Shown: positions 8,207 to 15,151 of the stretch, piece after piece | Numbering within the stretch: the stretch's first letter is position 1 | Layout of the letters: each line of letters opens with the position of its first letter | DNA from: a virus | Virus genome (UHGV): UHGV-0124835 | Strand: one strand, 5' to 3' | Length of the DNA stretch: 16,897 nt | Translations under genes and position numbers: made by a program | The notes under the pieces: model-generated | Seen by the model: the letters and a program-made list of their open reading frames with translations, nothing else | Databases searched by the model: none | Told to the model about the DNA's origin: nothing

Positions 8207-8479
8207 ATGGAAGGAAATGATTACGACAAACTTCGTGCATTAATTGCGCAAAATGCCATAGCGCGAAATCTTGGTGTGACGCCGCAAGCGGTGAATCAGT
8301 GGTTTTCAAAAAACACAATTCCTGCTCGTTTCGTTTTACGCGTATGTGAAGTAGTTGCATGGAAGGTCACGCCACATGGCTTAAGGCCAGATCTTTATCC
8401 TCACCCTGAAGATGGAATTCCTGATTCGTTACGCAAAATTTCAAATCCAAGCTTAGCGCACACAGAGGACGAGAAGTGA
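8207..8479 (+). CDS. Cro/YdaS-like HTH transcriptional regulator
   Basis: 90-aa ORF divergent from cI; motif LGVTPQAVNQWFSKNTIPARFVLRVCEVV...GLRPDLYPHPED resembles YdaS/Cro-family proteins. Confidence 0.75.
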   Translation: MEGNDYDKLRALIAQNAIARNLGVTPQAVNQWFSKNTIPARFVLRVCEVVAWKVTPHGLRPDLYPHPEDGIPDSLRKISNPSLAHTEDEK

Positions 8480-8519
8480 TGGTGGTGATATGAGCGAAAA
8501 AATAACTATTAAATACGAT

Positions 8520-8542
8520 GGGGCAACCATTTCGATTGCCCC
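8520..8542. terminator. hairpin between the convergent cro-like gene and the 8550..8843 gene
   Basis: GGGGCAA-N9-TTGCCCC stem-loop 8 nt beyond the stop of the minus-strand gene; a T-rich tract follows on the minus strand only after about 15 nt, so terminator function is tentative. Confidence 0.3.
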
Positions 8543-8549
8543 AATCACA

Positions 8550-8843
8550 TTAGCGTTCGCTGAGAAGTTGTTGGTAAGCCTTAAAGGATGCGAACTGCAT
8601 TCTACCTTCGGCATTGATTCCAATGCCTTCGCTTGTACACCAGGTGATGAACTCGGCTGTATCCGCTTCAACTTTAATAACTCGTTGCCCGCTTCTTTCG
8701 ACACGCTTAATCAATTTTTCAGCGTCGTGTTTCCACTCGGTGTAACTGTCGGAGAGCACATCAGCATCAGTAAAAATATTTTTGAGCTCATGATACTGAA
8801 TCGCATCGCGAAACCAGAATAAACCAACGGCCTGAACTTTCAT
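8550..8843 (-). CDS. hypothetical protein (97 aa), convergent to cro
   Basis: ATG at 8843 preceded by AAGGAGGT at ideal spacing; protein-like composition (MKVQAVGLFWFRDAIQYHELKNIF...). The overlapping plus-strand ORF 8490..8822 is judged antisense. Confidence 0.55.
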   Translation of the reverse strand: MKVQAVGLFWFRDAIQYHELKNIFTDADVLSDSYTEWKHDAEKLIKRVERSGQRVIKVEADTAEFITWCTSEGIGINAEGRMQFASFKAYQQLLSER

Positions 8844-8962
8844 GTCGAACCTCCTTTGGTTCTTTTGTTTATAGGGATCAAAAGGATAACTGAAGGAAGG
8901 TTCGGCACCAATAAGTACGAATGTGCGGAATCTTAAAAGAATTTATCCGTAAGGAGATGGCA

Positions 8963-9568
8963 GTGAACACCGCAATTTTTAACGACAAAGCATCCATGAC
9001 CAGCGTTGAGATCGCAGAGCTGGTGGGTAGTCAGCACTCAGATGTTAAACGTAGTATCGAACGCCTGGTTGCTAAAAACATCATCCGGAAACCGCCAATG
9101 GCTGTTTCCGAGAAAATCAATAACTTAGGTTTTAAAGTTCAATATGAGCATTACCTGTTTGAAGGAGAACAAGGTAAGCGCGACAGCATCATTGTCGTCG
9201 CACAGCTCTGCCCTGAATTCACTGCTCGCCTGGTAGATCGCTGGCGTGAACTGGAAGAACAGATCCGTAAGCCAATGAGCGAAATCGAAATGGTTGCCGC
9301 GATGGCTCTTGAAGCCGTTCGCCAACAGAAACGGATCACTCAGGTGGAAGAAAAAGTCAGCCACGTTGCTGAAACAGTCGAGCAAATTAAAAAGGGCACT
9401 ATTCGTGAGGGCTATGCCGGATATCGCCAACTGAAAGCAAAAACCGGTTTGTCAGATGATAACCGCGAGGGACTCGCTGGTATCACCCGAAAATGGGGTT
9501 ATTTCAGGTTATTGGTTGGCAGCGGTGAAAAAAAGCCGGGAGTAACCCGGCTCACTCAACATCAATAA
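8963..9568 (+). CDS. Rha-family phage regulatory protein (antirepressor-like), paralog 1
   Basis: Motif MTSVEIAELVGSQHSDVKRSIERL typical of the Phage_pRha family. The track ORF starts at ATG 8921 with no SD; an in-frame ATG at 8957 abuts the AAGGAG; the GTG at 8963 has the best SD spacing and is used here. Confidence 0.75.
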   Translation: MNTAIFNDKASMTSVEIAELVGSQHSDVKRSIERLVAKNIIRKPPMAVSEKINNLGFKVQYEHYLFEGEQGKRDSIIVVAQLCPEFTARLVDRWRELEEQIRKPMSEIEMVAAMALEAVRQQKRITQVEEKVSHVAETVEQIKKGTIREGYAGYRQLKAKTGLSDDNREGLAGITRKWGYFRLLVGSGEKKPGVTRLTQHQ

Positions 9569-9658
9569 CGGGGAGCTGTTTCGCATAAAACGGCTCCGAA
9601 ACATCCAAGAACAGTTCTAAAGATATCAGCAGCTATATGATCATTTCAAGACCAAATA

Positions 9659-9687
9659 TTGATTCTGCAATTTCGGGACGTTACACT
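9659..9687 (+). promoter_or_regulatory. sigma70-like promoter of Rha module A (TTGATT-N17-TACACT)
   Basis: Read directly: TTGATT, 17-nt spacer, TACACT; the same element recurs almost base-for-base at 10315..10343. Confidence 0.55.
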
Positions 9688-9795
9688 GTCTCTGCACCTT
9701 ATAAAGCGGGTGCCGGGGGTCGCAGCCCGGAATTGCATACGGCGATATATGACGCGCCAGCGTCTTTTTTATCGTCCGCGCTCACGCACGCCAGA

Positions 9796-9906
9796 ATTAT
9801 GGTGGGCTGGGCAGGGGAGCCGAAAGGCTCGCCGGTTTCCGTATGCGCCGGTACTGCGAACCCTGTTCAGTTCACCACCCATGAGTTTCGCAGCTCCGGT
9901 GGTGGA
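9796..9906 (+). ncRNA. c4-like antisense RNA candidate, module A
   Basis: Conserved ATTATGGTGGG box; GAAA-tetraloop hairpin 9817-9830; CCGG-closed 12-nt loop TTTCCGTATGCG (9836-9847) complementary to TGCATACGGAGG at the SD of the downstream gene; 8-bp TCACCACC/GGTGGTGG stem (9872-9879 with 9898-9905). Ends are not defined. Confidence 0.5.
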
Positions 9907-9916
9907 AGTTATCCAT

Positions 9917-9928
9917 TGCATACGGAGG
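9917..9928 (+). promoter_or_regulatory. antisense target site overlapping the SD of Rha paralog 2
   Basis: TGCATACGGAGG pairs with loop 9836-9847 over 12 positions (9 Watson-Crick plus 3 G-U); a direct repeat of the core ATTGCATACGG is at 9731-9741. Confidence 0.5.
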
Positions 9929-9936
9929 CTGCCATC

Positions 9937-10299
9937 ATGGCTACTGTCCTAACTTCCCCATTCCTAAAAATCGAAGTCGTCAACGGCAAGGCCGTTATTT
10001 TCTCCCTGCATGTTGCCTGCCATTTCAAGCGCATGCACCAGAACATCGTTGACAAAATCGAGTATCTGAACTGCTCACGCGAGTTTTTTACCCGCAATTT
10101 CATACCGGGTACTTATCACATCTACGGTGACTCCCTGCGTGGTTATTACATCACCCTTGATGGTCTGATGATGCTTCAGCTTGGGTTAAGTCTGCGCACA
10201 ATGCGGTACTACGAGAGCTGCATTGAAGCATTCCATGAGGCTGAAACCGTCCAGGGTCACTCCGCGTTCCGTCGTAATCAACGGGAGGTGCACCTATGA
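9937..10299 (+). CDS. Rha-family phage regulatory protein, paralog 2 (120 aa)
   Basis: ATG at 9937 with GGAGG 8 nt upstream; Rha-like core IEVVNGKAVIFSLHVACHFKRMHQNIVDKIEYLNCSREF...YYITLDGLMML. The track ORF extends upstream to 9637 through the leader; that extension is judged non-coding. Confidence 0.65.
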   Translation: MATVLTSPFLKIEVVNGKAVIFSLHVACHFKRMHQNIVDKIEYLNCSREFFTRNFIPGTYHIYGDSLRGYYITLDGLMMLQLGLSLRTMRYYESCIEAFHEAETVQGHSAFRRNQREVHL

Positions 10300-10314
10300 T
10301 CCGCCACCAGCATA

Positions 10315-10343
10315 TTGATTCTGCAATTCCGGGACGTTACACT
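10315..10343 (+). promoter_or_regulatory. sigma70-like promoter of Rha module B (TTGATT-N17-TACACT)
   Basis: Same element and spacing as 9659..9687, inside a ~60-nt block nearly identical between the two modules. Confidence 0.55.
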
Positions 10344-10451
10344 GTCTCCGCACCTTATAAAGCGGGTGCCGGGCGTGGAAACCCGAAATTCAATATAGAG
10401 CACAACCGCGCTCATGCGGTTTTTTCGTGTCATGAGCATCGTTACGCCCAA

Positions 10452-10564
10452 ATTATGGTGGGGCGTGCAGGGCCAACTTCGGTTGGGCCGGGTTCTATGT
10501 TGACCGGTATTTCCACCCCTGTACGTCTCACCACCTATATGGTCGTGGAAAGCCTTGGTGGTGA
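10452..10564 (+). ncRNA. c4-like antisense RNA candidate, module B
   Basis: Same architecture as module A with compensatory changes: UUCG-tetraloop hairpin CCAAC-TTCG-GTTGG (10473-10486); CCGG-closed 12-nt loop GTTCTATGTTGA (10492-10503) complementary to TCAACATAGGGG at the SD of the downstream gene; conserved TCACCACC/GGTGGTGA stem. Confidence 0.5.
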
Positions 10565-10575
10565 GTTCATTGAAT

Positions 10576-10587
10576 TCAACATAGGGG
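10576..10587 (+). promoter_or_regulatory. antisense target site overlapping the SD of Rha paralog 3
   Basis: TCAACATAGGGG pairs with loop 10492-10503 (9 Watson-Crick plus 2 G-U); an upstream near-repeat TCAATATAGAG is at 10390-10400. Confidence 0.5.
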
Positions 10588-10595
10588 CTGTCACC

Positions 10596-11147
10596 ATGAC
10601 TACTCTCCCAACCCAATCTCACCCTGAAATCACGATTATCAATGGTCGCGTTGTCACCACATCTCTTGCAGTAGCTAATTACTTTACTAAACGGCATGAG
10701 CGGGTTTTAGATAGAATTAGAAACCTCGAATGTTCCGCTGAATTTACTGAACACAATTTTGTGTTAAGTGAATACACCGACGCATCAGGCCGCAAACTCC
10801 CTTGTTACCAAATCACCCGCGACGGTTTTGCGTTTCTTGCCATGGGCTTCACTGGTAAACGTGCTGCCCGGTTCAAAGAGGCATACATCAACGCCTTTAA
10901 CCTGATGGAGAAGAGTTTATCAGGTGCCGATGCGTCTGATATGTCAGCTGTCGCACGAAACGCCAGAGGCGTATACCTGCATTTGCGTGAAATCCATCAA
11001 ATCTGGACAAGCCAGCTTTATCCAATGCTTAAGGCCGTTGAATCTCCGCTGGCTAGCAAACTGTACGACCGTGTTGGTGATGCTGTTTTTGGCGCTGCAC
11101 TTGTTGATTCCAGGCTGAATGGTTCTGACAAGGAGGTTCGCCCATGA
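10596..11147 (+). CDS. Rha-family phage regulatory protein, paralog 3 (183 aa)
   Basis: ATG at 10596 with AGGGG 8 nt upstream; Rha-like core ITIINGRVVTTSLAVANYFTKRHERVLDRIRNLECSAEF...YQITRDGFAFLAMGFTGKRAARFKEAYINAFN. The track ORF extends upstream to 10296 through the leader. Confidence 0.65.
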   Translation: MTTLPTQSHPEITIINGRVVTTSLAVANYFTKRHERVLDRIRNLECSAEFTEHNFVLSEYTDASGRKLPCYQITRDGFAFLAMGFTGKRAARFKEAYINAFNLMEKSLSGADASDMSAVARNARGVYLHLREIHQIWTSQLYPMLKAVESPLASKLYDRVGDAVFGAALVDSRLNGSDKEVRP

Positions 11148-11338
11148 TTAGTTACGAAATCATCATCTCCACTACGGAATACAGAAACGATGTATCAGTT
11201 CGCACGGATGTATCTGTCTGGCACCGTCGCTATAAATCCAGAAAAACAGCGGAACTGAAAGCGGCAGAGATGTGTGAAACCATCTCAATGAAAGGTAGCC
11301 CGGTTAAATACGTAACTACGGCGGAGGTGCGTCCATGA
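11144..11338 (+). CDS. hypothetical protein (64 aa)
   Basis: ATG overlaps the stop of the Rha gene (ATGA); AAGGAGG upstream. Confidence 0.6.
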   Translation: MISYEIIISTTEYRNDVSVRTDVSVWHRRYKSRKTAELKAAEMCETISMKGSPVKYVTTAEVRP

Positions 11339-11559
11339 TCCGCCACATCGTTAATTCCCTGTATCACCGATACAACCGTTGCCCCCGTGTGGGGCAGTGG
11401 TTCGCCACCAGCAACGGTCACGTTCTGCGGGTTTGCCTAGTCAACGCTGAAAGCCAGAAAGTCGTGTGCGAACTACAGGGGCGTAGCTACACCATCAGTT
11501 ACCCTCTGGCGGTATTTCTGTCTGGAAAAATGTTTAAGCGTCTGGGAGGTGTGGCGTGA
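11335..11559 (+). CDS. hypothetical protein (74 aa)
   Basis: ATGA overlap with the upstream stop; GGAGG upstream. Confidence 0.6.
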   Translation: MIRHIVNSLYHRYNRCPRVGQWFATSNGHVLRVCLVNAESQKVVCELQGRSYTISYPLAVFLSGKMFKRLGGVA

Positions 11560-11855
11560 ACTGTTTTCAGTTTGTGTGCGGATGTGCTTTCGATAACCCG
11601 ATTCAGCGCCTAATTATGTTGCGTGTTTTGATGTCGGGTTCTTCAGACGGTGAAGGCGAGAGAGTTATTGATCATCAGGTGCTTGCTGATTTCTGCTGTT
11701 GTTCTAAGCAAGCGATATTCAGGGAAACCCTGGCACTGGAAAGAGCTGGTTATCTTCATATCCGAAAAATTGCAACGCTTACTATTGATGCAAAAGCCAG
11801 ACTACAACCTGCGCGTGGCTACACAATTCTCATGCCGCGGAAGGAGGTTGTATGA
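11556..11855 (+). CDS. hypothetical protein (99 aa), possibly winged-helix DNA-binding
   Basis: GTG start overlapping the upstream stop (GTGA) with GGGAGG upstream; translationally coupled to the replication gene that follows. Confidence 0.55.
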   Translation: MNCFQFVCGCAFDNPIQRLIMLRVLMSGSSDGEGERVIDHQVLADFCCCSKQAIFRETLALERAGYLHIRKIATLTIDAKARLQPARGYTILMPRKEVV

Positions 11856-12844
11856 GCCGTTACGCCCCCACACCGGAAGTTATGGCTATTGGTCAAATTA
11901 ATATTTCCGGCAATGTTACACCTGCGAACTGGTGGAAATATATTCGACTACCCAGTGGGCGTCCGGATGCGACGGCTATCGCTCTGCTTTCAGAGATCGT
12001 TTACTGGTACCGCCCGACAGAGGTCAGGGATGAGCACACCGGAGCGTTGCTGGGATATCGCAAGCGTTTTCAGGGCGACAAACTGCAAAGAAGCTACCAG
12101 GCGTTTGCTGAGCAGTTTGGTTTCGGGAAAAGGGAAACCGCAGATGCGCTGAAGCGTCTGCGCGATGCAGGGTTTATTACTCTGGATTTACGCACGGTGG
12201 AAATGCTCGATGGGGTGAAATGCAGCAATATTTTGTTTGTCGGGATCAACCCACAGGCAATTGCGGCCATCACCACACCTTCTTCTGTTTCGCCAGAAAG
12301 TAACAGCAATAATGCAATCAGCGATACAGCTATTACGTTAAAACGGAACAGCCCCCGACGTCATAACGGAACAGGGGATACGCCGAATGTTGATACAAAT
12401 ACAGAGATTACTACAGAGATTACAACGGAGACTAAAAACACTATTGATGCATCCGCTGACGCGTCTGCGCCAGCGCGTTCTGCCCGACAGGAATATTCAC
12501 CGGAATTTGAACAGGCCTGGCAGGAATATCCCAAACGTGCTGGTGGCAATTCCAAGTCAGCAGCCTTCAAAGCCTGGAAAGCCCGTATCAGGGAGGGAAT
12601 AAAACCGGAGACCATGCTTGATGGCGTGAAGCGGTATGCCGCCTGGGTACGTGCTACAGGAAATACCGGCACACAGTTCGTGAAGCAGGCTGCGACGTTC
12701 TTTGGACCCGATCGTCACTTCGAAGATTACTGGCAACAGCCAGCCGCTCACGGAGGTGGGCGACAGCGACAGGTCGATGTCCTGGCTGGCCTGGGAGCCA
12801 TGTCTGACAAATTCGGTAAATCCAGTAACAAATTGACATTCTGA
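11852..12844 (+). CDS. phage replication initiation / replisome organizer protein (O-like)
   Basis: 330-aa ORF, ATGA-coupled to the upstream gene; two-domain layout with an internal low-complexity linker containing DNA direct repeats; C-terminal region EFEQAWQEYPKRAGGNSKSAAFKAWKARIREGI... resembles the conserved C-terminus of enterobacterial phage replication proteins (from memory). Confidence 0.75.
   Translation: MSRYAPTPEVMAIGQINISGNVTPANWWKYIRLPSGRPDATAIALLSEIVYWYRPTEVRDEHTGALLGYRKRFQGDKLQRSYQAFAEQFGFGKRETADALKRLRDAGFITLDLRTVEMLDGVKCSNILFVGINPQAIAAITTPSSVSPESNSNNAISDTAITLKRNSPRRHNGTGDTPNVDTNTEITTEITTETKNTIDASADASAPARSARQEYSPEFEQAWQEYPKRAGGNSKSAAFKAWKARIREGIKPETMLDGVKRYAAWVRATGNTGTQFVKQAATFFGPDRHFEDYWQQPAAHGGGRQRQVDVLAGLGAMSDKFGKSSNKLTF
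12343..12436 (+). repeat. short direct repeats inside the O-like gene (candidate iterons)
   Basis: AACGGAACAG at 12343 and 12365; tandem 12-mers ACAGAGATTACT / ACAGAGATTACA / ACGGAGACTAAA at 12401-12436, encoding TEITTEITTET. Confidence 0.45.
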
Positions 12845-12854
12845 GGTGACAGCG

Positions 12855-13754
12855 ATGATGACGATTGACCAACGTGAGAAACAAACAAGACTACAGGCGC
12901 GAATGGATGAGTTACGGGCAGAAATGGATGAGTTACGGGCAGAGATTGCATTTGCTCAGAAGGGCGAAAAGCCATGGCCTTATCGTTCCTGCCTGATGCG
13001 TGAAGATCGCGGATATTGCGAAAAACACGGTAAATATCGTACGCATATACTGGTGTGGATCGATCGTAATGGCGAGGACAGAGAAAAAATTTCATGCTGC
13101 CCTGACTGCTTGATCGCTGAGGCCAGTGATTTGACCATGGAACTGTCGTCCCTCAAGGCGGAAGAACTGACTGATAACGCCGGAATTGCTCTGCGTTTTC
13201 GGGACTGCGAGTTTGATAATTATCTGGAGGTTAATCCTGACGCAGCCAGAAATCTTGCGGCCTGTCGCCGCTATGCGGAGAACTGGCCAGATATGCTGGA
13301 GAACGGTACCAGTATTGTTATGACCGGCAGTTGCGGTACCGGGAAAAATCATCTGGCGGTATCAATGGCAAAACACATCATCCGTAACTATCTGGCCAGT
13401 GTGGAGATCACCGACGTGATGCGCCTTACCCGGGCTGTGAAAAACTGCTGGCGGAATGACAGTGAAAAAACAGCGGATGACGTCATTGAGCATTATGCGT
13501 CACTGGATTTGCTGATTGTCGACGAAGTCGGCGTTCAGTTTGGCAGTGCGGCTGAAATGGCCATTTTGCAGGAAATTATCAATGCCCGGTATGAGGGTAT
13601 TTTGCCAACTATCCTGATCAGCAACCTTTCACCGGAAGAATTGTGGGCGTTCATCAGTCCCCGGATTGCCGACAGGATCACCGATGGCGGGCGCAACTGG
13701 TTGTCGTTTAACTGGCCCAGCTACCGTTCTCGTATCGGAGGTGTTGCCGCATGA
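12855..13754 (+). CDS. DnaC-like helicase loader (IstB-like AAA+ ATPase) with N-terminal Cys-rich extension
   Basis: Walker A GSCGTGKNHLAVSMAK and Walker B LLIVDEVG. The track start at 12846 is a GTG overlapping the SD; ATG at 12855 follows GAGGTG at good spacing. Confidence 0.85.
   Translation: MMTIDQREKQTRLQARMDELRAEMDELRAEIAFAQKGEKPWPYRSCLMREDRGYCEKHGKYRTHILVWIDRNGEDREKISCCPDCLIAEASDLTMELSSLKAEELTDNAGIALRFRDCEFDNYLEVNPDAARNLAACRRYAENWPDMLENGTSIVMTGSCGTGKNHLAVSMAKHIIRNYLASVEITDVMRLTRAVKNCWRNDSEKTADDVIEHYASLDLLIVDEVGVQFGSAAEMAILQEIINARYEGILPTILISNLSPEELWAFISPRIADRITDGGRNWLSFNWPSYRSRIGGVAA
12903..12944 (+). repeat. 21-bp tandem duplication (2 copies, 20/21 identical)
   Basis: ATGGATGAGTTACGGGCAGAA followed by ATGGATGAGTTACGGGCAGAG; an in-frame duplication of the heptad MDELRAE in the N-terminus of the DnaC-like gene. 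Confidence 0.8.
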
Positions 13755-15151
13755 CCAGCCAGAACACCCCGGCATGGCGTAACGATGACCTGGAAGGCGC
13801 TGTCATCGGTGCGTTTTTTCTGCGTGGGGCCGATCCGGAAGTGATGGATATTCTGGCCACACTTCCGGCGGATGTATTTTTTGTGCGTCAGTACCGGGAT
13901 ATTTACGCGGGGATTTGCAGACAGGCTCGCATATCCGGCGTCATTGACCCCGTACTGCTGTGCAATGAGATGCCGGAACTTGCCCCGGTGATTACCGACA
14001 CCGGACGCAAAACCTGGGTGAAGTCTTCACTGGAGCACTATGTCGCAGCGTTGCGGCGCAATGCCGCACTGCGCGATGCAGAAAAAACACTGACTGAAGC
14101 ATTACAGAATTTACGTGATGCGTATACCTGTGAAGCAGCCGAGGATGCCCTGAAGGATGCGCAGAACATGATGGCCTCACTGTCGACCGGAAAGGGCGTC
14201 ATTCAGCCGGTTCACATTGATGATGTCCTTCCGGAAGTGGTCGACCGTGTTGAATGCCGCAATCAGGGACTGGAGAAATCCAGGGCGCTGATGACCGGTA
14301 TTGATGAACTGGACGCAAAAACGGGCGGTATGGAGCCCGGAGACCTGGTATTCATTGCCGCCCGTCCTTCGATGGGGAAAACCGAACTTGCGCTGGACAT
14401 CATCGACAAGGTGACTGAGCAGGGGCATGGCGTGCTTCTGTTCACCATGGAGATGGCGAACATCCAGATTGGTGAACGTATGGTGTCTGCTGCCGGTGGA
14501 ATGCCGGTATCCCGTCTTAAGTCTGTTGCCCGTTTTGAAGATGAAGACTGGGCGCGTTTCACGCAGGGCGTGGGACGAATGACGGGGCGTAATATCTGGA
14601 TGGTGGACCAGGCAAACCTGACCATTGATGAGATATGTGCAACCACGAAGCACCACCGGATGAAACACCCGGAAACGGCGCTGGTGGTGGTCGATTACCT
14701 CGGCCTGATTAAAACCCGCAGCACGGGGCGTCACGACCTTGCGGTGGGGGAAATCTCAAAGGGACTTAAAAGCCTGGCAAAATCCGGCGGTTTTCCGCTG
14801 ATTGCTCTGAGCCAGCTCTCCCGCGGCGTGGAATCCAGACCCAATAAACGCCCAATGAACTCGGACCTGAAAAACTCCGGGGAAATCGAGGCGGATGCCG
14901 ACATCATTCTGATGCTTTACAGGGATGAGGTATACAACCCGGAAACTCAGGCCAGAGGCATAGCAGAAATCAACATCACGAAACAGCGTAATGGCACGCT
15001 GGGTACCATTTACCGGCGTTTTCATAACGGGCATTTTCTGCCTGTGGATCAGGAGAGTGCCCGGGTTCTTTCCACACCCATGACGCCGGGCAATCCGCGC
15101 AGATACAGCAATAACCGCATGTCGGGCAGTAAAACGGAGCGTTTATTTTGA
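13751..15151 (+). CDS. DnaB-like replicative DNA helicase
   Basis: 466-aa ORF, ATGA-coupled with GGAGGTG upstream; Walker A GDLVFIAARPSMGKTELALDI and overall DnaB-family organisation. Confidence 0.9.
   Translation: MTSQNTPAWRNDDLEGAVIGAFFLRGADPEVMDILATLPADVFFVRQYRDIYAGICRQARISGVIDPVLLCNEMPELAPVITDTGRKTWVKSSLEHYVAALRRNAALRDAEKTLTEALQNLRDAYTCEAAEDALKDAQNMMASLSTGKGVIQPVHIDDVLPEVVDRVECRNQGLEKSRALMTGIDELDAKTGGMEPGDLVFIAARPSMGKTELALDIIDKVTEQGHGVLLFTMEMANIQIGERMVSAAGGMPVSRLKSVARFEDEDWARFTQGVGRMTGRNIWMVDQANLTIDEICATTKHHRMKHPETALVVVDYLGLIKTRSTGRHDLAVGEISKGLKSLAKSGGFPLIALSQLSRGVESRPNKRPMNSDLKNSGEIEADADIILMLYRDEVYNPETQARGIAEINITKQRNGTLGTIYRRFHNGHFLPVDQESARVLSTPMTPGNPRRYSNNRMSGSKTERLF

Follow-up and report, generated by a model that had tools for sequence, protein, structure and literature searches.

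The initiator gene of an E. coli lambdoid prophage located beside mlrA carries short direct repeats near its middle, and the question this locus raises is whether these repeats are the origin at which the prophage replicates or only a feature of the encoded protein. We address it here within a 16,897-nt stretch of DNA, the whole of which is referred to as the window, combining sequence comparison, structure modeling and duplex stability analysis.

The replication module and its initiator

The prophage encodes an initiator, a DnaC-like loader and a DnaB-like helicase, in this order and in one operon:

11852–12844, plus strand: replication initiator gene, 330 aa; phrog_270 'replication initiation protein' (6.6e-78), no Pfam family
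12846–13754, plus strand: DnaC-like helicase loader gene; IstB_IS21 (2e-14), phrog_50 (1.8e-87); the RefSeq start is at 12855
13751–15151, plus strand: DnaB-like replicative helicase gene; DnaB_C (6.3e-74), phrog_19 (3.2e-115)

Close homologs of the 330-aa initiator are named 'replication protein' by NCBI, and a gene 99.9% identical to that of the initiator is present in E. coli SCU-105. The structure model of this protein consists of an N-terminal winged-helix-like domain, a disordered linker and a helical C-terminal domain, and divides the gene into three parts:

11852–12274, plus strand: putative origin-binding N-terminal domain, aa 1–141, with a modeled helix-turn-helix and beta wing (H77-88, H93-106, E109-132)
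12275–12487, plus strand: linker-coding segment, aa 142–212, with the candidate origin inside; pLDDT 27–34 and no secondary structure in the model
12488–12844, plus strand: C-terminal domain, aa 213–330, a separate exchangeable module that is found behind several unrelated N-terminal domains

The model is confident for the C-terminal domain alone (pLDDT 74–90 over aa 211–290, dropping to ~35 beyond aa 300), and the fold of the initiator is used here just as 'winged-helix-like'. A Foldseek search of the model against the PDB gave no matches at E≤0.001; the weak matches of the N-terminal domain were all to winged-helix proteins, including the N-terminal domain of DnaD. Sequence searches with the initiator detected no Pfam families at E≤0.01, no NCBIfam models and no solved structure, and the N-terminal fragment (aa 1–149), compared with Pfam at E≤10, yielded nothing beyond the sub-threshold families HTH_36 (0.02) and NirdL-like HTH (0.18). 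The N-terminal domain itself is also present in phages of Geobacillus, Bacillus and Acinetobacter, at 41–55% identity.

The first-pass annotation of this DNA described the gene as 'O-like'. The initiator is a functional analog of lambda O that lies outside the O family: its N-terminal domain does not belong to Phage_rep_O, its matches to the 'O-like' PHROGs are weak (phrog_391, 6e-7; phrog_678, 7.6e-5), its C-terminal domain belongs to a family (phrog_26426, phrog_1701) that differs from the lambda-O type, and the genes downstream are DnaC-like and DnaB-like, with no P-type partner. Homology to the N-terminal domain of G38P (Phage_rep_org_N) was not detected either, the initiator having no Pfam matches. 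The C-terminal domain is presumed to contact the loader or the helicase.

Searches of the replication module for another iteron-like array or a DnaA-box cluster found none. There are no DnaA boxes within 8403–13436, and their total over the window is below the chance expectation. Likewise, no promoter- or terminator-like sites were predicted in the initiator linker, and their counts over 11300–13300 are at chance level. Within the loader gene, a 21-bp sequence is repeated exactly in tandem (12902–12943); it was considered as an origin feature and rejected as a lineage-specific duplication.

Two classes of repeats in the linker-coding segment

The linker-coding segment and its immediate surroundings contain the following elements:

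12329–12351, plus strand: iteron 1, core ACGTTAAAACG at 12335–12345, 66 nt 5' of the 12-mer array, peptide T-L-K-R-N-S
12352–12374, plus strand: iteron 2, core ACGTCATAACG at 12358–12368, 43 nt 5' of the 12-mer array, peptide R-R-H-N-G-T-G
12375–12397, plus strand: third iteron position, degenerate, in the -21 register, ACGCCGAATGT at 12380–12390
12401–12436, plus strand: constant 12-mer array, ACAGAGATTACT (12401–12412), ACAGAGATTACA (12413–12424) and degenerate ACGGAGACTAAA (12425–12436)
12393–12438, no strand assigned: duplex of lowest stability in the initiator gene, from a nearest-neighbor free-energy scan in 46-bp windows
12454–12469, no strand assigned: G+C-rich overlapping palindrome CGCTGACGCGTCTGCG, directly past the A/T-rich block

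The string AACGGAACAG is present in two copies, as the first-pass annotation noted, at 12342–12351 and 12365–12374; these are 23 bp apart start to start, not 22 bp, and the window has no further exact copy. Allowing one mismatch adds a single site on the opposite strand (expected count at ≤1 mismatch, 0.94). This string is real, and it is part of a longer unit than was first recognized, namely the 17-mers ACGTTAAAACGGAACAG (12335–12351) and ACGTCATAACGGAACAG (12358–12374), which are identical at 15 of 17 positions. The core of the unit is a near-palindrome, ACGTTnnAACG, with internal dyad symmetry. The third position, which reads ACGTTGAAA(A/C)G in homologs, is decayed in the window sequence and in loci L044 and L042, so that the window holds two intact iterons and one decayed one, at spacings of 23 and 22 bp. 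Because the two 17-mer copies are read in different frames, the repeat belongs to the DNA and not to the peptide.

The three tandem 12-mers were also correctly reported, the third unit being degenerate. They are translated in frame within 11852–12844 as T-E-I-T, T-E-I-T and T-E-T-K, and their consensus is ACAGAGAnTACw, with the peptide unit T-E-x-T. Tandem Repeats Finder assigns them a period of 12, 2.7 copies and a score of 50, the second highest in the window. These repeats are real and not due to chance. All of them, 17-mers and 12-mers alike, fall at aa 162–195, which bears out the inter-domain placement originally proposed, given the very low pLDDT and lack of secondary structure over aa 142–212. 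The 17-mers and the 12-mers had been taken for one set of iterons; they are two separate classes of elements.

Nor does the statement that no obvious AT-rich unwinding block follows the repeats stand, since the 12-mer array is itself the low-stability block. Across the 16.9 kb, just ~1% of segments of equal size have a lower stability than 12393–12438; the segment 12391–12445 has 31% GC, which is just moderately A/T-rich, and its top strand is 47% A. By analogy with known origins, we propose the 12-mer array as a candidate DNA unwinding element. Beyond the array, the sequence CGCCAGCGCG (window 12467–12476), which adjoins the palindrome, is shortened by a 6-bp deletion in E. coli R14.

The linker is constrained as DNA

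Repeats within a coding sequence could reflect nothing more than a slippage-prone, Thr/Glu-rich flexible linker with no role in cis, in which case the origin would be elsewhere. The predicted disorder of the segment, the wide distribution of the T-E-x-T peptide and the variation of copy number within E. coli are all compatible with this explanation. We consider it very unlikely, given several observations that it does not accommodate. First, synonymous-codon identity among 11 homologs peaks in the linker, climbing there from ~0.45 to 0.9 (0.73–0.92, vs 0.35–0.55 in both domains), despite the peptide there being variable and disordered. Second, in a codon-degenerate scan for TEITTEIT, the codons ACA-GAG-ATT-AC[T/A] were used in 80 of 87 distinct contexts (~90%), corresponding by protein cluster to 17 of 20, on contigs with GC from 0.33 to 0.62. 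Inside these arrays Glu is encoded by GAG in 98% of cases, vs 41% elsewhere in the same ORFs, and Thr by ACA or ACT in 95%, vs 52%; the position of the 12-mer that does vary is the non-synonymous one (Ile/Asn/Thr). Third, translation of the 17-mers and of related repeats uses two or three different frames. Fourth, the replication module offers no other candidate array.

Finally, a block made up of three iterons, three 12-mers and ~45 further bp is present on the Bacillus plasmid pBSG3, with 76% identity to the initiator linker of phage PM1 over 181 nt. Its frame is broken by indels, both initiator domains are absent, and the block, which lies outside any initiator gene, is overlapped just by a 63-aa ORF in another frame.

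With regard to the codon evidence, the loci of the first DNA scan were chosen by sequence, and many 12-mer loci are related enterobacterial prophages; the 12-mer logo is partly circular because that scan fixed 16 of 18 of its letters. The logo was accordingly excluded as evidence for synonymous conservation, for which the degenerate scan and the protein-selected homologs alone are unbiased with respect to codon choice. Taken at this scope, the sequence comparisons argue that the 12-mer is constrained at the DNA level and that the linker-coding segment is under selection as DNA, in all likelihood as a cis-acting element that overlaps the coding sequence.

The first-pass annotation suggested comparing repeat copy number among homologs and regarded absence of the repeats from conserved homologs as fatal to its proposal. 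The repeats are kept in homologs at the DNA level, and copy number does vary; in one homolog, from Citrobacter amalonaticus (L041), the 12-mer array is largely degenerate. The 12-mers are present in one to three copies among near-identical E. coli genes, and thus the copy requirement is not strict.

A function at the RNA level, such as an mRNA structure, an sRNA target or a translational pause, would fit the location of the 12-mers, which without exception are in the coding strand and share a single frame. Folded as RNA, 12325–12475 has a z-score of -0.14 with the 12-mers unpaired, there are no Rfam matches in the replication module, the linker is devoid of promoter- or terminator-like sites, and the pBSG3 block is not part of an initiator gene. 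We rejected this explanation, which is barely credible in view of the folding result and the lack of Rfam matches.

The 23-bp repeats follow the N-terminal domain

Among 15 genes that share this N-terminal domain, 13 contain the core ACGTTnnAACG (≤2 mismatches) two to six times, including genes of Yersinia, Serratia, Acinetobacter and Geobacillus phages. The cores are concentrated in the linker, at 19.4 per kb vs 1.9 per kb in the rest of the gene. Their spacings are mostly 22–23 bp or twice that, and, counted from the first 12-mer, they occupy positions -21, -43, -66, -88, -111 and -133 in most genes; in the Geobacillus and phIS3501 arrays this register is offset by ~12 nt. In Geobacillus phage PT9.1, the domain of which is 55% identical, four perfect cores are translated in three different frames, and the variants in Yersinia differ from each other by complete units of 45 bp. 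The core follows the N-terminal domain: within this domain subfamily it is kept from E. coli to Geobacillus, in phIS3501 (41% identity) it reads ACATTnAAACG, and in PM1 and qsb1 other sequences take its place. From these comparisons, the 23-bp-spaced 17-mers appear to behave as initiator-specific iterons. The presence of two intact iterons in the window, vs three to six in most relatives, is a weakness for the origin reading; the prophage could be replication-defective.

A constant 12-mer in diverse phage initiator genes

The 12-mers extend much farther than the iterons. They are nearly letter-identical in initiator genes of E. coli, Acinetobacter, Bacillus and Staphylococcus phages, and the T-E-x-T frame accounts for 120 of the 123 ACAGAGAHTACWACAGAG matches, which usually lie 130–200 aa into an ORF of ~170–570 aa. 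These ORFs were grouped into 52 clusters at 60% identity (single linkage at 35% fused 118 ORFs into one group and was dropped), and the representatives of 43 of the 52 match 'replication initiation protein' PHROGs. The arrays have two to four units in 51 of the 52 clusters. The 100 nt 5' of the array contain a direct repeat that is specific to the cluster. In this segment the best 12-mer match averages 11.25/12, whereas control segments average 8.6 and 8.9 (52 clusters; Wilcoxon p ~3e-10); a repeat of at least 11/12 is present in 43 clusters, and 23 of these have a spacing of 23 bp. A scan of genome collections gave 2 full-length homologs only, and homolog DNA was then retrieved protein by protein. 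On this comparative evidence, the 12-mers appear to be a constant element common to many initiator families with differing iterons.

A different role for the array is suggested by mosaicism. In E. coli genomes, many matches start at query 550 (window 12401, the first 12-mer) or at 589–598, just past the array, placing mosaic boundaries at the array start and just beyond its end, and the array is joined to many types of N- and C-terminal domains. The 12-mers could therefore be kept mainly as a patch of homology at which N- and C-terminal modules are swapped by recombination. This we regard as highly improbable: homologous recombination works poorly on 24–36 bp, and neither the identity among phages of Staphylococcus, Bacillus, Acinetobacter and E. 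coli, which cannot meet, nor the fixed register with the iterons, nor the orphan copy in pBSG3 would be explained. Junctions at these borders are expected regardless if the origin and its binding domain travel as a unit.

Melting alone also seems an insufficient account of the 12-mer, because it would favor GAA over the invariant GAG. Conservation beyond the need of melting, with almost invariant synonymous positions, is what would be expected if the roles within the origin were swapped, that is, if the 12-mers were the true duplex binding sites that nucleate an initiator oligomer with a 12-bp period, the 23-bp repeats were secondary or specificity elements, and unwinding occurred elsewhere. 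Initiators of the HTH_36 type have their own 12-bp element, GAACCAGTCAWA; the type of 12-mer thus tracks the N-terminal superfamily, which a double-stranded binding site fits equally well, and where mosaic boundaries occur, the 12-mer remains attached to the N-terminal module. We nonetheless deem the swapped arrangement unlikely. Clearly different initiators would share sites, at the cost of origin specificity; the variable 23-bp repeats are those with classical iteron spacing and dyad symmetry, and they co-vary with the domain; and the array is the stability minimum, located exactly where lambda and SPP1 have AT-rich unwinding tracts.

Origin reading and proposed mechanism

We conclude that 12329–12440 is likely the prophage origin of theta replication. 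Like the origins in lambda gene O and SPP1 gene 38, this segment lies inside the gene of the initiator itself, where the linker is encoded. This reading follows from the anatomy of the locus, the DNA-level constraint, the way in which the iterons co-vary with the N-terminal domain, and a location that matches two mapped origins, all of which are observed; initiator binding, unwinding and origin activity at 12329–12440 are what we infer from them. The operon context, the low duplex stability of the array, the orphan block of pBSG3 and the mosaic boundaries at the array also speak for it. The best reading, by analogy, is an origin of a known kind, the lambda/SPP1-style intragenic type in which iterons precede an unwinding element. 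The lambda-like origin envisaged in the first-pass annotation is upheld in outline, with homologs keeping the repeats as DNA and the layout matching both ori-lambda and SPP1 oriL, and is corrected in its details.

Under the proposed mechanism, the N-terminal winged-helix domain would bind the 22–23-bp iterons (core ACGTTnnAACG), probably as dimers. The initiator-iteron complex would destabilize the adjacent A-rich ACAGAGAnTACw array (12401–12436), which would serve as the unwinding element, and the C-terminal domain would then recruit the phage DnaC-like loader and DnaB-like helicase. The letter-for-letter conservation of the 12-mer across hosts implies that it is probably recognized sequence-specifically. 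The likeliest reader would be the initiator superfamily itself, perhaps on one strand, in the manner of plasmid Rep proteins with 13-mers, and the T-E-x-T peptide would be largely a by-product of the DNA.

Extending this reading, we put forward, as a tentative generalization, that ACAGAGAnTACw arrays may be a universal sequence-specific origin part of a very large superfamily of winged-helix phage initiators in Proteobacteria and Firmicutes (contigs of 30–64% GC), placed between variable iterons and the C-terminal module and read as DNA and probably as one initiator-bound unwound strand. If so, T-E-x-T would be a by-product in general, and orphan plasmid copies such as that in pBSG3 may serve as phage-origin decoys or represent hitch-hiking origins.

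The analysis narrows the probable origin to ~110 bp and identifies the letters that matter. It also suggests a rule for finding origins in uncharacterized phages and prophages, relatives of Stx phages included: within the initiator linker, look for family-specific repeats ~23 bp apart followed by a 12-mer array. For annotators, 'T-E-I-T' peptide repeats would denote DNA signals, not protein motifs. The sharing of the 12-base element among phages of E. coli, Acinetobacter, Bacillus and Staphylococcus points to a shared recognition step in origin opening, of which no description was found in the literature searched. Among the hits listed in a full-text literature search whose coverage mostly leaves out subscription journals, none was relevant and none contained the exact strings ACAGAGATTAC and TEITTEITTE. 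No description of the 12-mer was found in work on staphylococcal and lambdoid phage origins, and an earlier one may exist; no experimentally mapped origin carrying the 12-mer was found in the literature.

Comparison with known origins

The closest parallel is ori-lambda, which lies in the middle of gene O, between the parts encoding its two domains, N-terminal (origin-binding) and C-terminal, and comprises four 18-bp iterons and a 38-bp AT-rich tract. The iterons are spaced by 20, 24 and 23 bp and are directly followed by the A-rich tract (PMC3349717); two iterons and the AT tract are enough for unwinding, and O binds the resulting single-stranded DNA (PMC7466680). The prophage locus shares with lambda the site between domains, dyad-symmetric repeats (~18–23 bp, at intervals of ~20–24 bp or roughly two helical turns), covariation of the repeats with the N-terminal domain, and an adjoining meltable, A-rich tract of low stability directly after the iterons on the same side. 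It differs in having two intact iterons instead of four, in the pairing of its C-terminal domain with DnaC-like and DnaB-like genes where lambda has P, and in its AT tract, which consists of tandem 12-mers conserved across phyla whereas that of lambda is non-repetitive. Initiators of the mEp460 type, with an apparent lambda-O-type C-terminal domain (judged by eye), have 12-mers in place of the lambda AT tract.

In gene content, the module is of the same three-gene type as that of SPP1 (organizer gp38, loader gp39, DnaB-type helicase gp40), with the same organizer–loader–helicase order and with repeats plus a predicted unwinding element inside the organizer gene. SPP1 oriL consists of direct repeats together with an AT-rich unwinding element in the linker-coding part of gene 38 (PMC6316719), and in both phages these elements lie just 5' of the part encoding the C-terminal domain. 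In contrast, the gp38 N-terminal domain and repeats look unrelated to ours by eye, and the AT block of SPP1 is AACAATGATAAC-like, distinct from ACAGAGAnTACw. Whereas oriL is experimentally proven, including by in vitro reconstitution, the prophage origin is predicted from sequence. Staphylococcus phage 37 has a Phg_2220_C domain, with a C-terminal resemblance to SPP1 gp38 that was judged by eye, and its 12-mers stand where SPP1 oriL has the AT-rich unwinding element.

P22 and phage L gene 18 are likewise cases of lambdoid initiators each with their own repeats within the coding region. The internal repeats of phage L gene 18 were read as an origin without experiment (PMC8022706); they differ from those described here, being six copies of TGTCCAACGGA, and the paper makes no reference to a constant element that is shared.

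A further likeness is to iteron plasmids such as RK2 (oriV) and F, in which the iterons of winged-helix Rep proteins adjoin an A/T-rich element of short repeats, the exact sequence of which is important, and one strand of the repeated 13-mers in the unwinding element is bound by Rep (PMC4081077). The prophage locus corresponds to the RK2 type in its tandem 12–13-mers, two to four in number, conserved in sequence and set in an A/T-rich block beside iterons. The plasmid origins are intergenic and their 13-mers replicon-specific, whereas the repeats described here are translated and are common to many replicons and hosts.

Replication module of a lambdoid prophage

The window derives from an E. 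coli lambdoid prophage and corresponds to its early region; a 99.9% identical copy in strain SCU-105 adjoins mlrA, flanked by integrase and excisionase genes on one side and, on the other, by genes for the Q antiterminator, tRNAs and lysis. In the SCU-105 locus (L272, 1-25000), the prophage lies beside mlrA (yehV), which we take to be a common Stx-phage integration site, and a DUF6645 gene is located downstream of Q and the tRNA-Ile/Arg/Arg genes, where stx would presumably be expected in an Stx phage. The features of the replication module are:

11852-12844, + strand, initiator gene (330 aa; phrog_270 'replication initiation protein', 6.6e-78)
12401-12412, + strand, first 12-mer, encoding TEIT
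12413-12424, + strand, second 12-mer, encoding TEIT
12425-12436, + strand, third 12-mer, degenerate, encoding TETK
12846-13754, + strand, DnaC-like loader gene
13751-15151, + strand, DnaB-like helicase gene

The initiator matched no Pfam family, and the RefSeq records label its gene 'hypothetical protein' or 'replication protein' and annotate no origin. Directly 5' of this gene and overlapping its start is a 99 aa ORF (11556-11855) whose match to phrog_4617 'replication initiation protein' (2e-29) covers positions 1-93 of that family; the Yersinia, Serratia, Salmonella and Citrobacter loci likewise have a small gene of this kind ahead of the initiator. Near its 5' end, the loader gene carries an exact 21-bp tandem duplication (AATGGATGAGTTACGGGCAGA twice, 12902-12943) that adds MDELRAE and, because it is absent from the Citrobacter and Stx2-phage homologues, is recent and lineage-specific. 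Elsewhere in the window, isrK (RF01394) and C4 antisense RNA (RF01695) occur in two copies each, at 9694-9882 and 10350-10538, at the 5' ends of the Ash/Rha-type gene pair 9637-10299 / 10296-11147, an arrangement resembling a P1/P7-style c4-type antisense immunity cassette in duplicate.

Two kinds of repeats in the initiator linker

The first-pass annotation had described a 10-mer occurring twice, 22 bp apart, followed by three tandem 12-mers in the inter-domain linker of the initiator gene. The two copies of AACGGAACAG are indeed present (12342-12351 and 12365-12374) and are the only exact ones in the whole window, but they are spaced 23 bp start to start; the full repeat, or iteron, is 17 nt long (ACGTTAAAACGGAACAG and ACGTCATAACGGAACAG, 15/17 identical). 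All three 12-mers were recovered, the last of them degenerate. The linker placement is also correct, since in an AlphaFold model based on 25 homologues the repeats fall in a disordered stretch (aa 142-212, pLDDT 27-34, without secondary structure) flanked by an N-terminal domain with a helix-turn-helix plus wing and by a helical C-terminal domain that is modelled with confidence.

Location in a flexible linker raises the possibility that the repeats are simply a peptide spacer, which we consider improbable. The first 17-mer reads T-L-K-R-N-S and the second, in another frame, R-R-H-N-G-T-G; such reading in several frames contradicts a peptide role and, judged from the sequence, the 17-mers are DNA repeats, not peptide repeats. 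Moreover, across 11 homologues, the fraction of same-amino-acid codon pairs with an identical codon is 0.35-0.55 in both domains vs 0.73-0.92 in the linker, with the maximum at aa 173-190, even though the linker peptide varies more than any other part of the protein and has many indels. A cis-acting element that overlaps coding sequence would be expected to leave such a synonymous pattern. Equally, any notion that the element acts as RNA can be given hardly any credence, being contradicted by the lack of predicted RNA structure (z = -0.14) and of any Rfam match.

Iterons in related initiators

Protein similarity was the sole criterion for choosing homologue DNA (Citrobacter, Salmonella, Pectobacterium, Serratia and Yersinia), which was supplemented with Acinetobacter, Geobacillus and Bacillus phages whose N-terminal domains are 41-55% identical. 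The near-palindromic iteron core ACGTTnnAACG (<=2 mismatches) is found 2-6 times in 13 of the 15 genes, so that repeat copy number does vary among homologues, a check that the first-pass annotation had proposed. Spacings are mostly 22-23 bp or twice that, and core density is 19.4 per kb in the linker vs 1.9 per kb in the rest of the gene. In most genes the cores keep a register of -21, -43, -66, -88, -111 and -133 nt from the first 12-mer, displaced by about 12 nt in the Geobacillus and phIS3501 arrays; the window retains the -66 and -43 copies, the -21 site having decayed. Geobacillus phage PT9.1 has four perfect cores (GGGTGTGACGTTnnAACGTCAG) in three reading frames, and the Yersinia genes differ from one another by multiples of a 45-bp unit that corresponds to two iterons. 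With more distant N-terminal domains the repeat changes, to ACATTnAAACG in phIS3501 and to other repeats in PM1 and qsb1. In a Citrobacter amalonaticus locus (L041, 1501-2505), the 12-mers are largely degenerate (T-E-N-D-L-E-T-K-R-E-I-K) and three or four AACGGAA-type cores are kept, which could reflect either a decaying prophage origin or a loose 12-mer requirement.

The 12-mer array as a constant element

A blastn search with the linker against phage records retrieved initiator genes of Staphylococcus, Bacillus, Acinetobacter, Klebsiella and other E. coli phages; the array of Staphylococcus phage 37 reads ACA GAG ATT ACT ACA GAG ATT ACT ACA GAG ACT. Scanning IMG/VR for ACAGAGAHTACWACAGAG yielded at least 123 matches. 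Among the 123 listed, 120 are in the T-E-x-T frame, the array typically lies 130-200 aa from the ORF start, with ORFs about 170-570 aa long, and contig GC is 30-64%. Because this pattern had fixed the codons, a second scan used a codon-degenerate pattern for TEITTEIT, and 80 of the 87 distinct contexts still had ACA-GAG-ATT-AC[T/A], as did 17 of the 20 protein clusters. Inside arrays vs elsewhere in the same ORFs, Glu is GAG in 98% vs 41%, Thr is ACA or ACT in 95% vs 52% and Ile is ATT in 98% vs 50%, in all GC classes; the variable position is non-synonymous (Ile/Asn/Thr). Such near-fixed codons again contradict a purely peptide function.

Grouping the N-terminal domains of array-bearing ORFs at 60% identity gave 52 clusters, 43 of whose representatives match 'replication initiation protein' PHROGs; the C-terminal domains are Phg_2220_C, DnaB_2, DnaT or unknown. 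These comparisons indicate that a large class of initiators shares the 12-mers as a constant element. A cluster-specific direct repeat lies in the 100 nt upstream of the array (best 12-mer match averaging 11.25/12 vs 8.63 and 8.85 in N- and C-terminal domain control segments; Wilcoxon p about 3e-10), and of the 43 clusters whose repeat scores >=11/12, 23 have a spacing of 23 bp, 31 one of 22-24 bp and 8 one of 45-48 bp. Thus, the order is variable iterons about two helical turns apart, constant 12-mer array, C-terminal module.

In E. coli, otherwise near-identical genes have one to three exact units per array. At 12400-12423, E. coli/Shigella genes carry exact TACAGAGATTAC once (P0001), twice (window) or three times (strain PU-1), and in strain R14 the G+C-rich CGCCAGCGCG (window 12467-12476) is shortened by a 6-bp deletion. 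Across 480 E. coli genomes, many alignments begin either with the first 12-mer (query 550) or immediately past the array (589-598); therefore, the putative origin-binding domain moves as a unit with the iterons and 12-mers, and the C-terminal domain with the loader and helicase genes. The same modular logic is known for lambda O.

HTH_36-class initiators that share the C-terminal domain of the protein encoded in the window possess a constant 12-bp element of a different kind, GAACCAGTCAWA, which encodes E-P-V-K / E-P-V-I, has conserved codons and stands after their own tandem repeats (linkers of the comparison loci L003, L005, L008 and L010-L012; in L005, for example, four units of GGTGCAGCAGTTTCACCACAT, read GAAVSPH). 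It is a second class of constant element.

An orphan copy on Bacillus plasmids

Plasmid pBSG3 (L275, NC_014104) carries at 717-888 a block of three CCTACAGGGAAAG iterons spaced 22-23 bp apart, followed by three ACAGAGATTACT units and some 45 bp more, 76% identical over 181 nt to the initiator-gene linker of phage PM1; the same block is present in at least seven Bacillus plasmids of 8.4-8.9 kb, among them 8.4-kb ones near-identical to pBSG3. Since its frame is broken by one-base indels and pBSG3 shows no trace of the initiator N- or C-terminal domain, the block is kept as DNA; the sole ORF across it reads the 12-mers in another frame, L-Q-R-L. The block may act as a decoy for a phage origin, or be an origin that hitch-hikes. 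This orphan copy contradicts both the peptide explanation and the suggestion, which we regard as highly improbable, that the 12-mers are a patch of homology for recombination.

Predicted unwinding element and comparison with known origins

Contrary to the first-pass view that no obvious AT-rich unwinding block follows the iterons, the array is the least stable 46-bp duplex of the gene (31% GC; top strand 47% A), and only about 1% of same-size windows in the 16.9 kb are less stable. We propose that it would serve as the DNA unwinding element next to the iterons. In lambda, four iterons (39034, 39054, 39078 and 39101) are followed at once by ACACAAAAGACACTATTACAAAAGAAAAAAGAAAAGATTATTCG, the unwinding tract lying directly after the iterons (PMC3349717), a position that the 12-mers take in the candidate origin. 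Unwinding in lambda needs no more than two iterons beside the AT tract, which O binds in single-stranded form (PMC7466680). In mEp460-type initiators, the 12-mers stand just before a C-terminal domain that, by eye, looks lambda-O-type. SPP1 oriL, within gene 38, comprises direct repeats together with an AT-rich unwinding element and supports reconstituted replication (PMC6316719); its AT block immediately precedes the gp38 C-terminal region, and the 12-mers hold that place in Staphylococcus phage 37, before a Phg_2220_C domain that, by eye, resembles that region. The closest precedent for a sequence-conserved array beside iterons, and hence the basis of our interpretation, comes from plasmids RK2 and F, whose unwinding elements contain repeated 13-mers; winged-helix Rep proteins bind these on a single strand, and each 13-mer's sequence is important (PMC4081077). 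By analogy, we infer that the 12-mers are an unwinding element, probably recognised by the initiator. The main rival retains the origin and swaps the roles, the 12-mers being duplex binding sites; the link between 12-mer type and N-terminal superfamily fits this unlikely alternative, but fits an unwinding element equally. No DnaA boxes were found near the candidate origin in the window.

In the literature covered, neither the cross-phylum 12-mer nor its fixed register relative to the iterons is described; novelty is not proven, because most subscription journals lie outside that coverage. Intragenic iteron origins as such are textbook knowledge for lambda. They have been inferred for gene 18 of P22 and phage L (PMC8022706) and proven for SPP1 (PMC6316719), and the candidate origin is very probably a further case, in an initiator family without a Pfam model.
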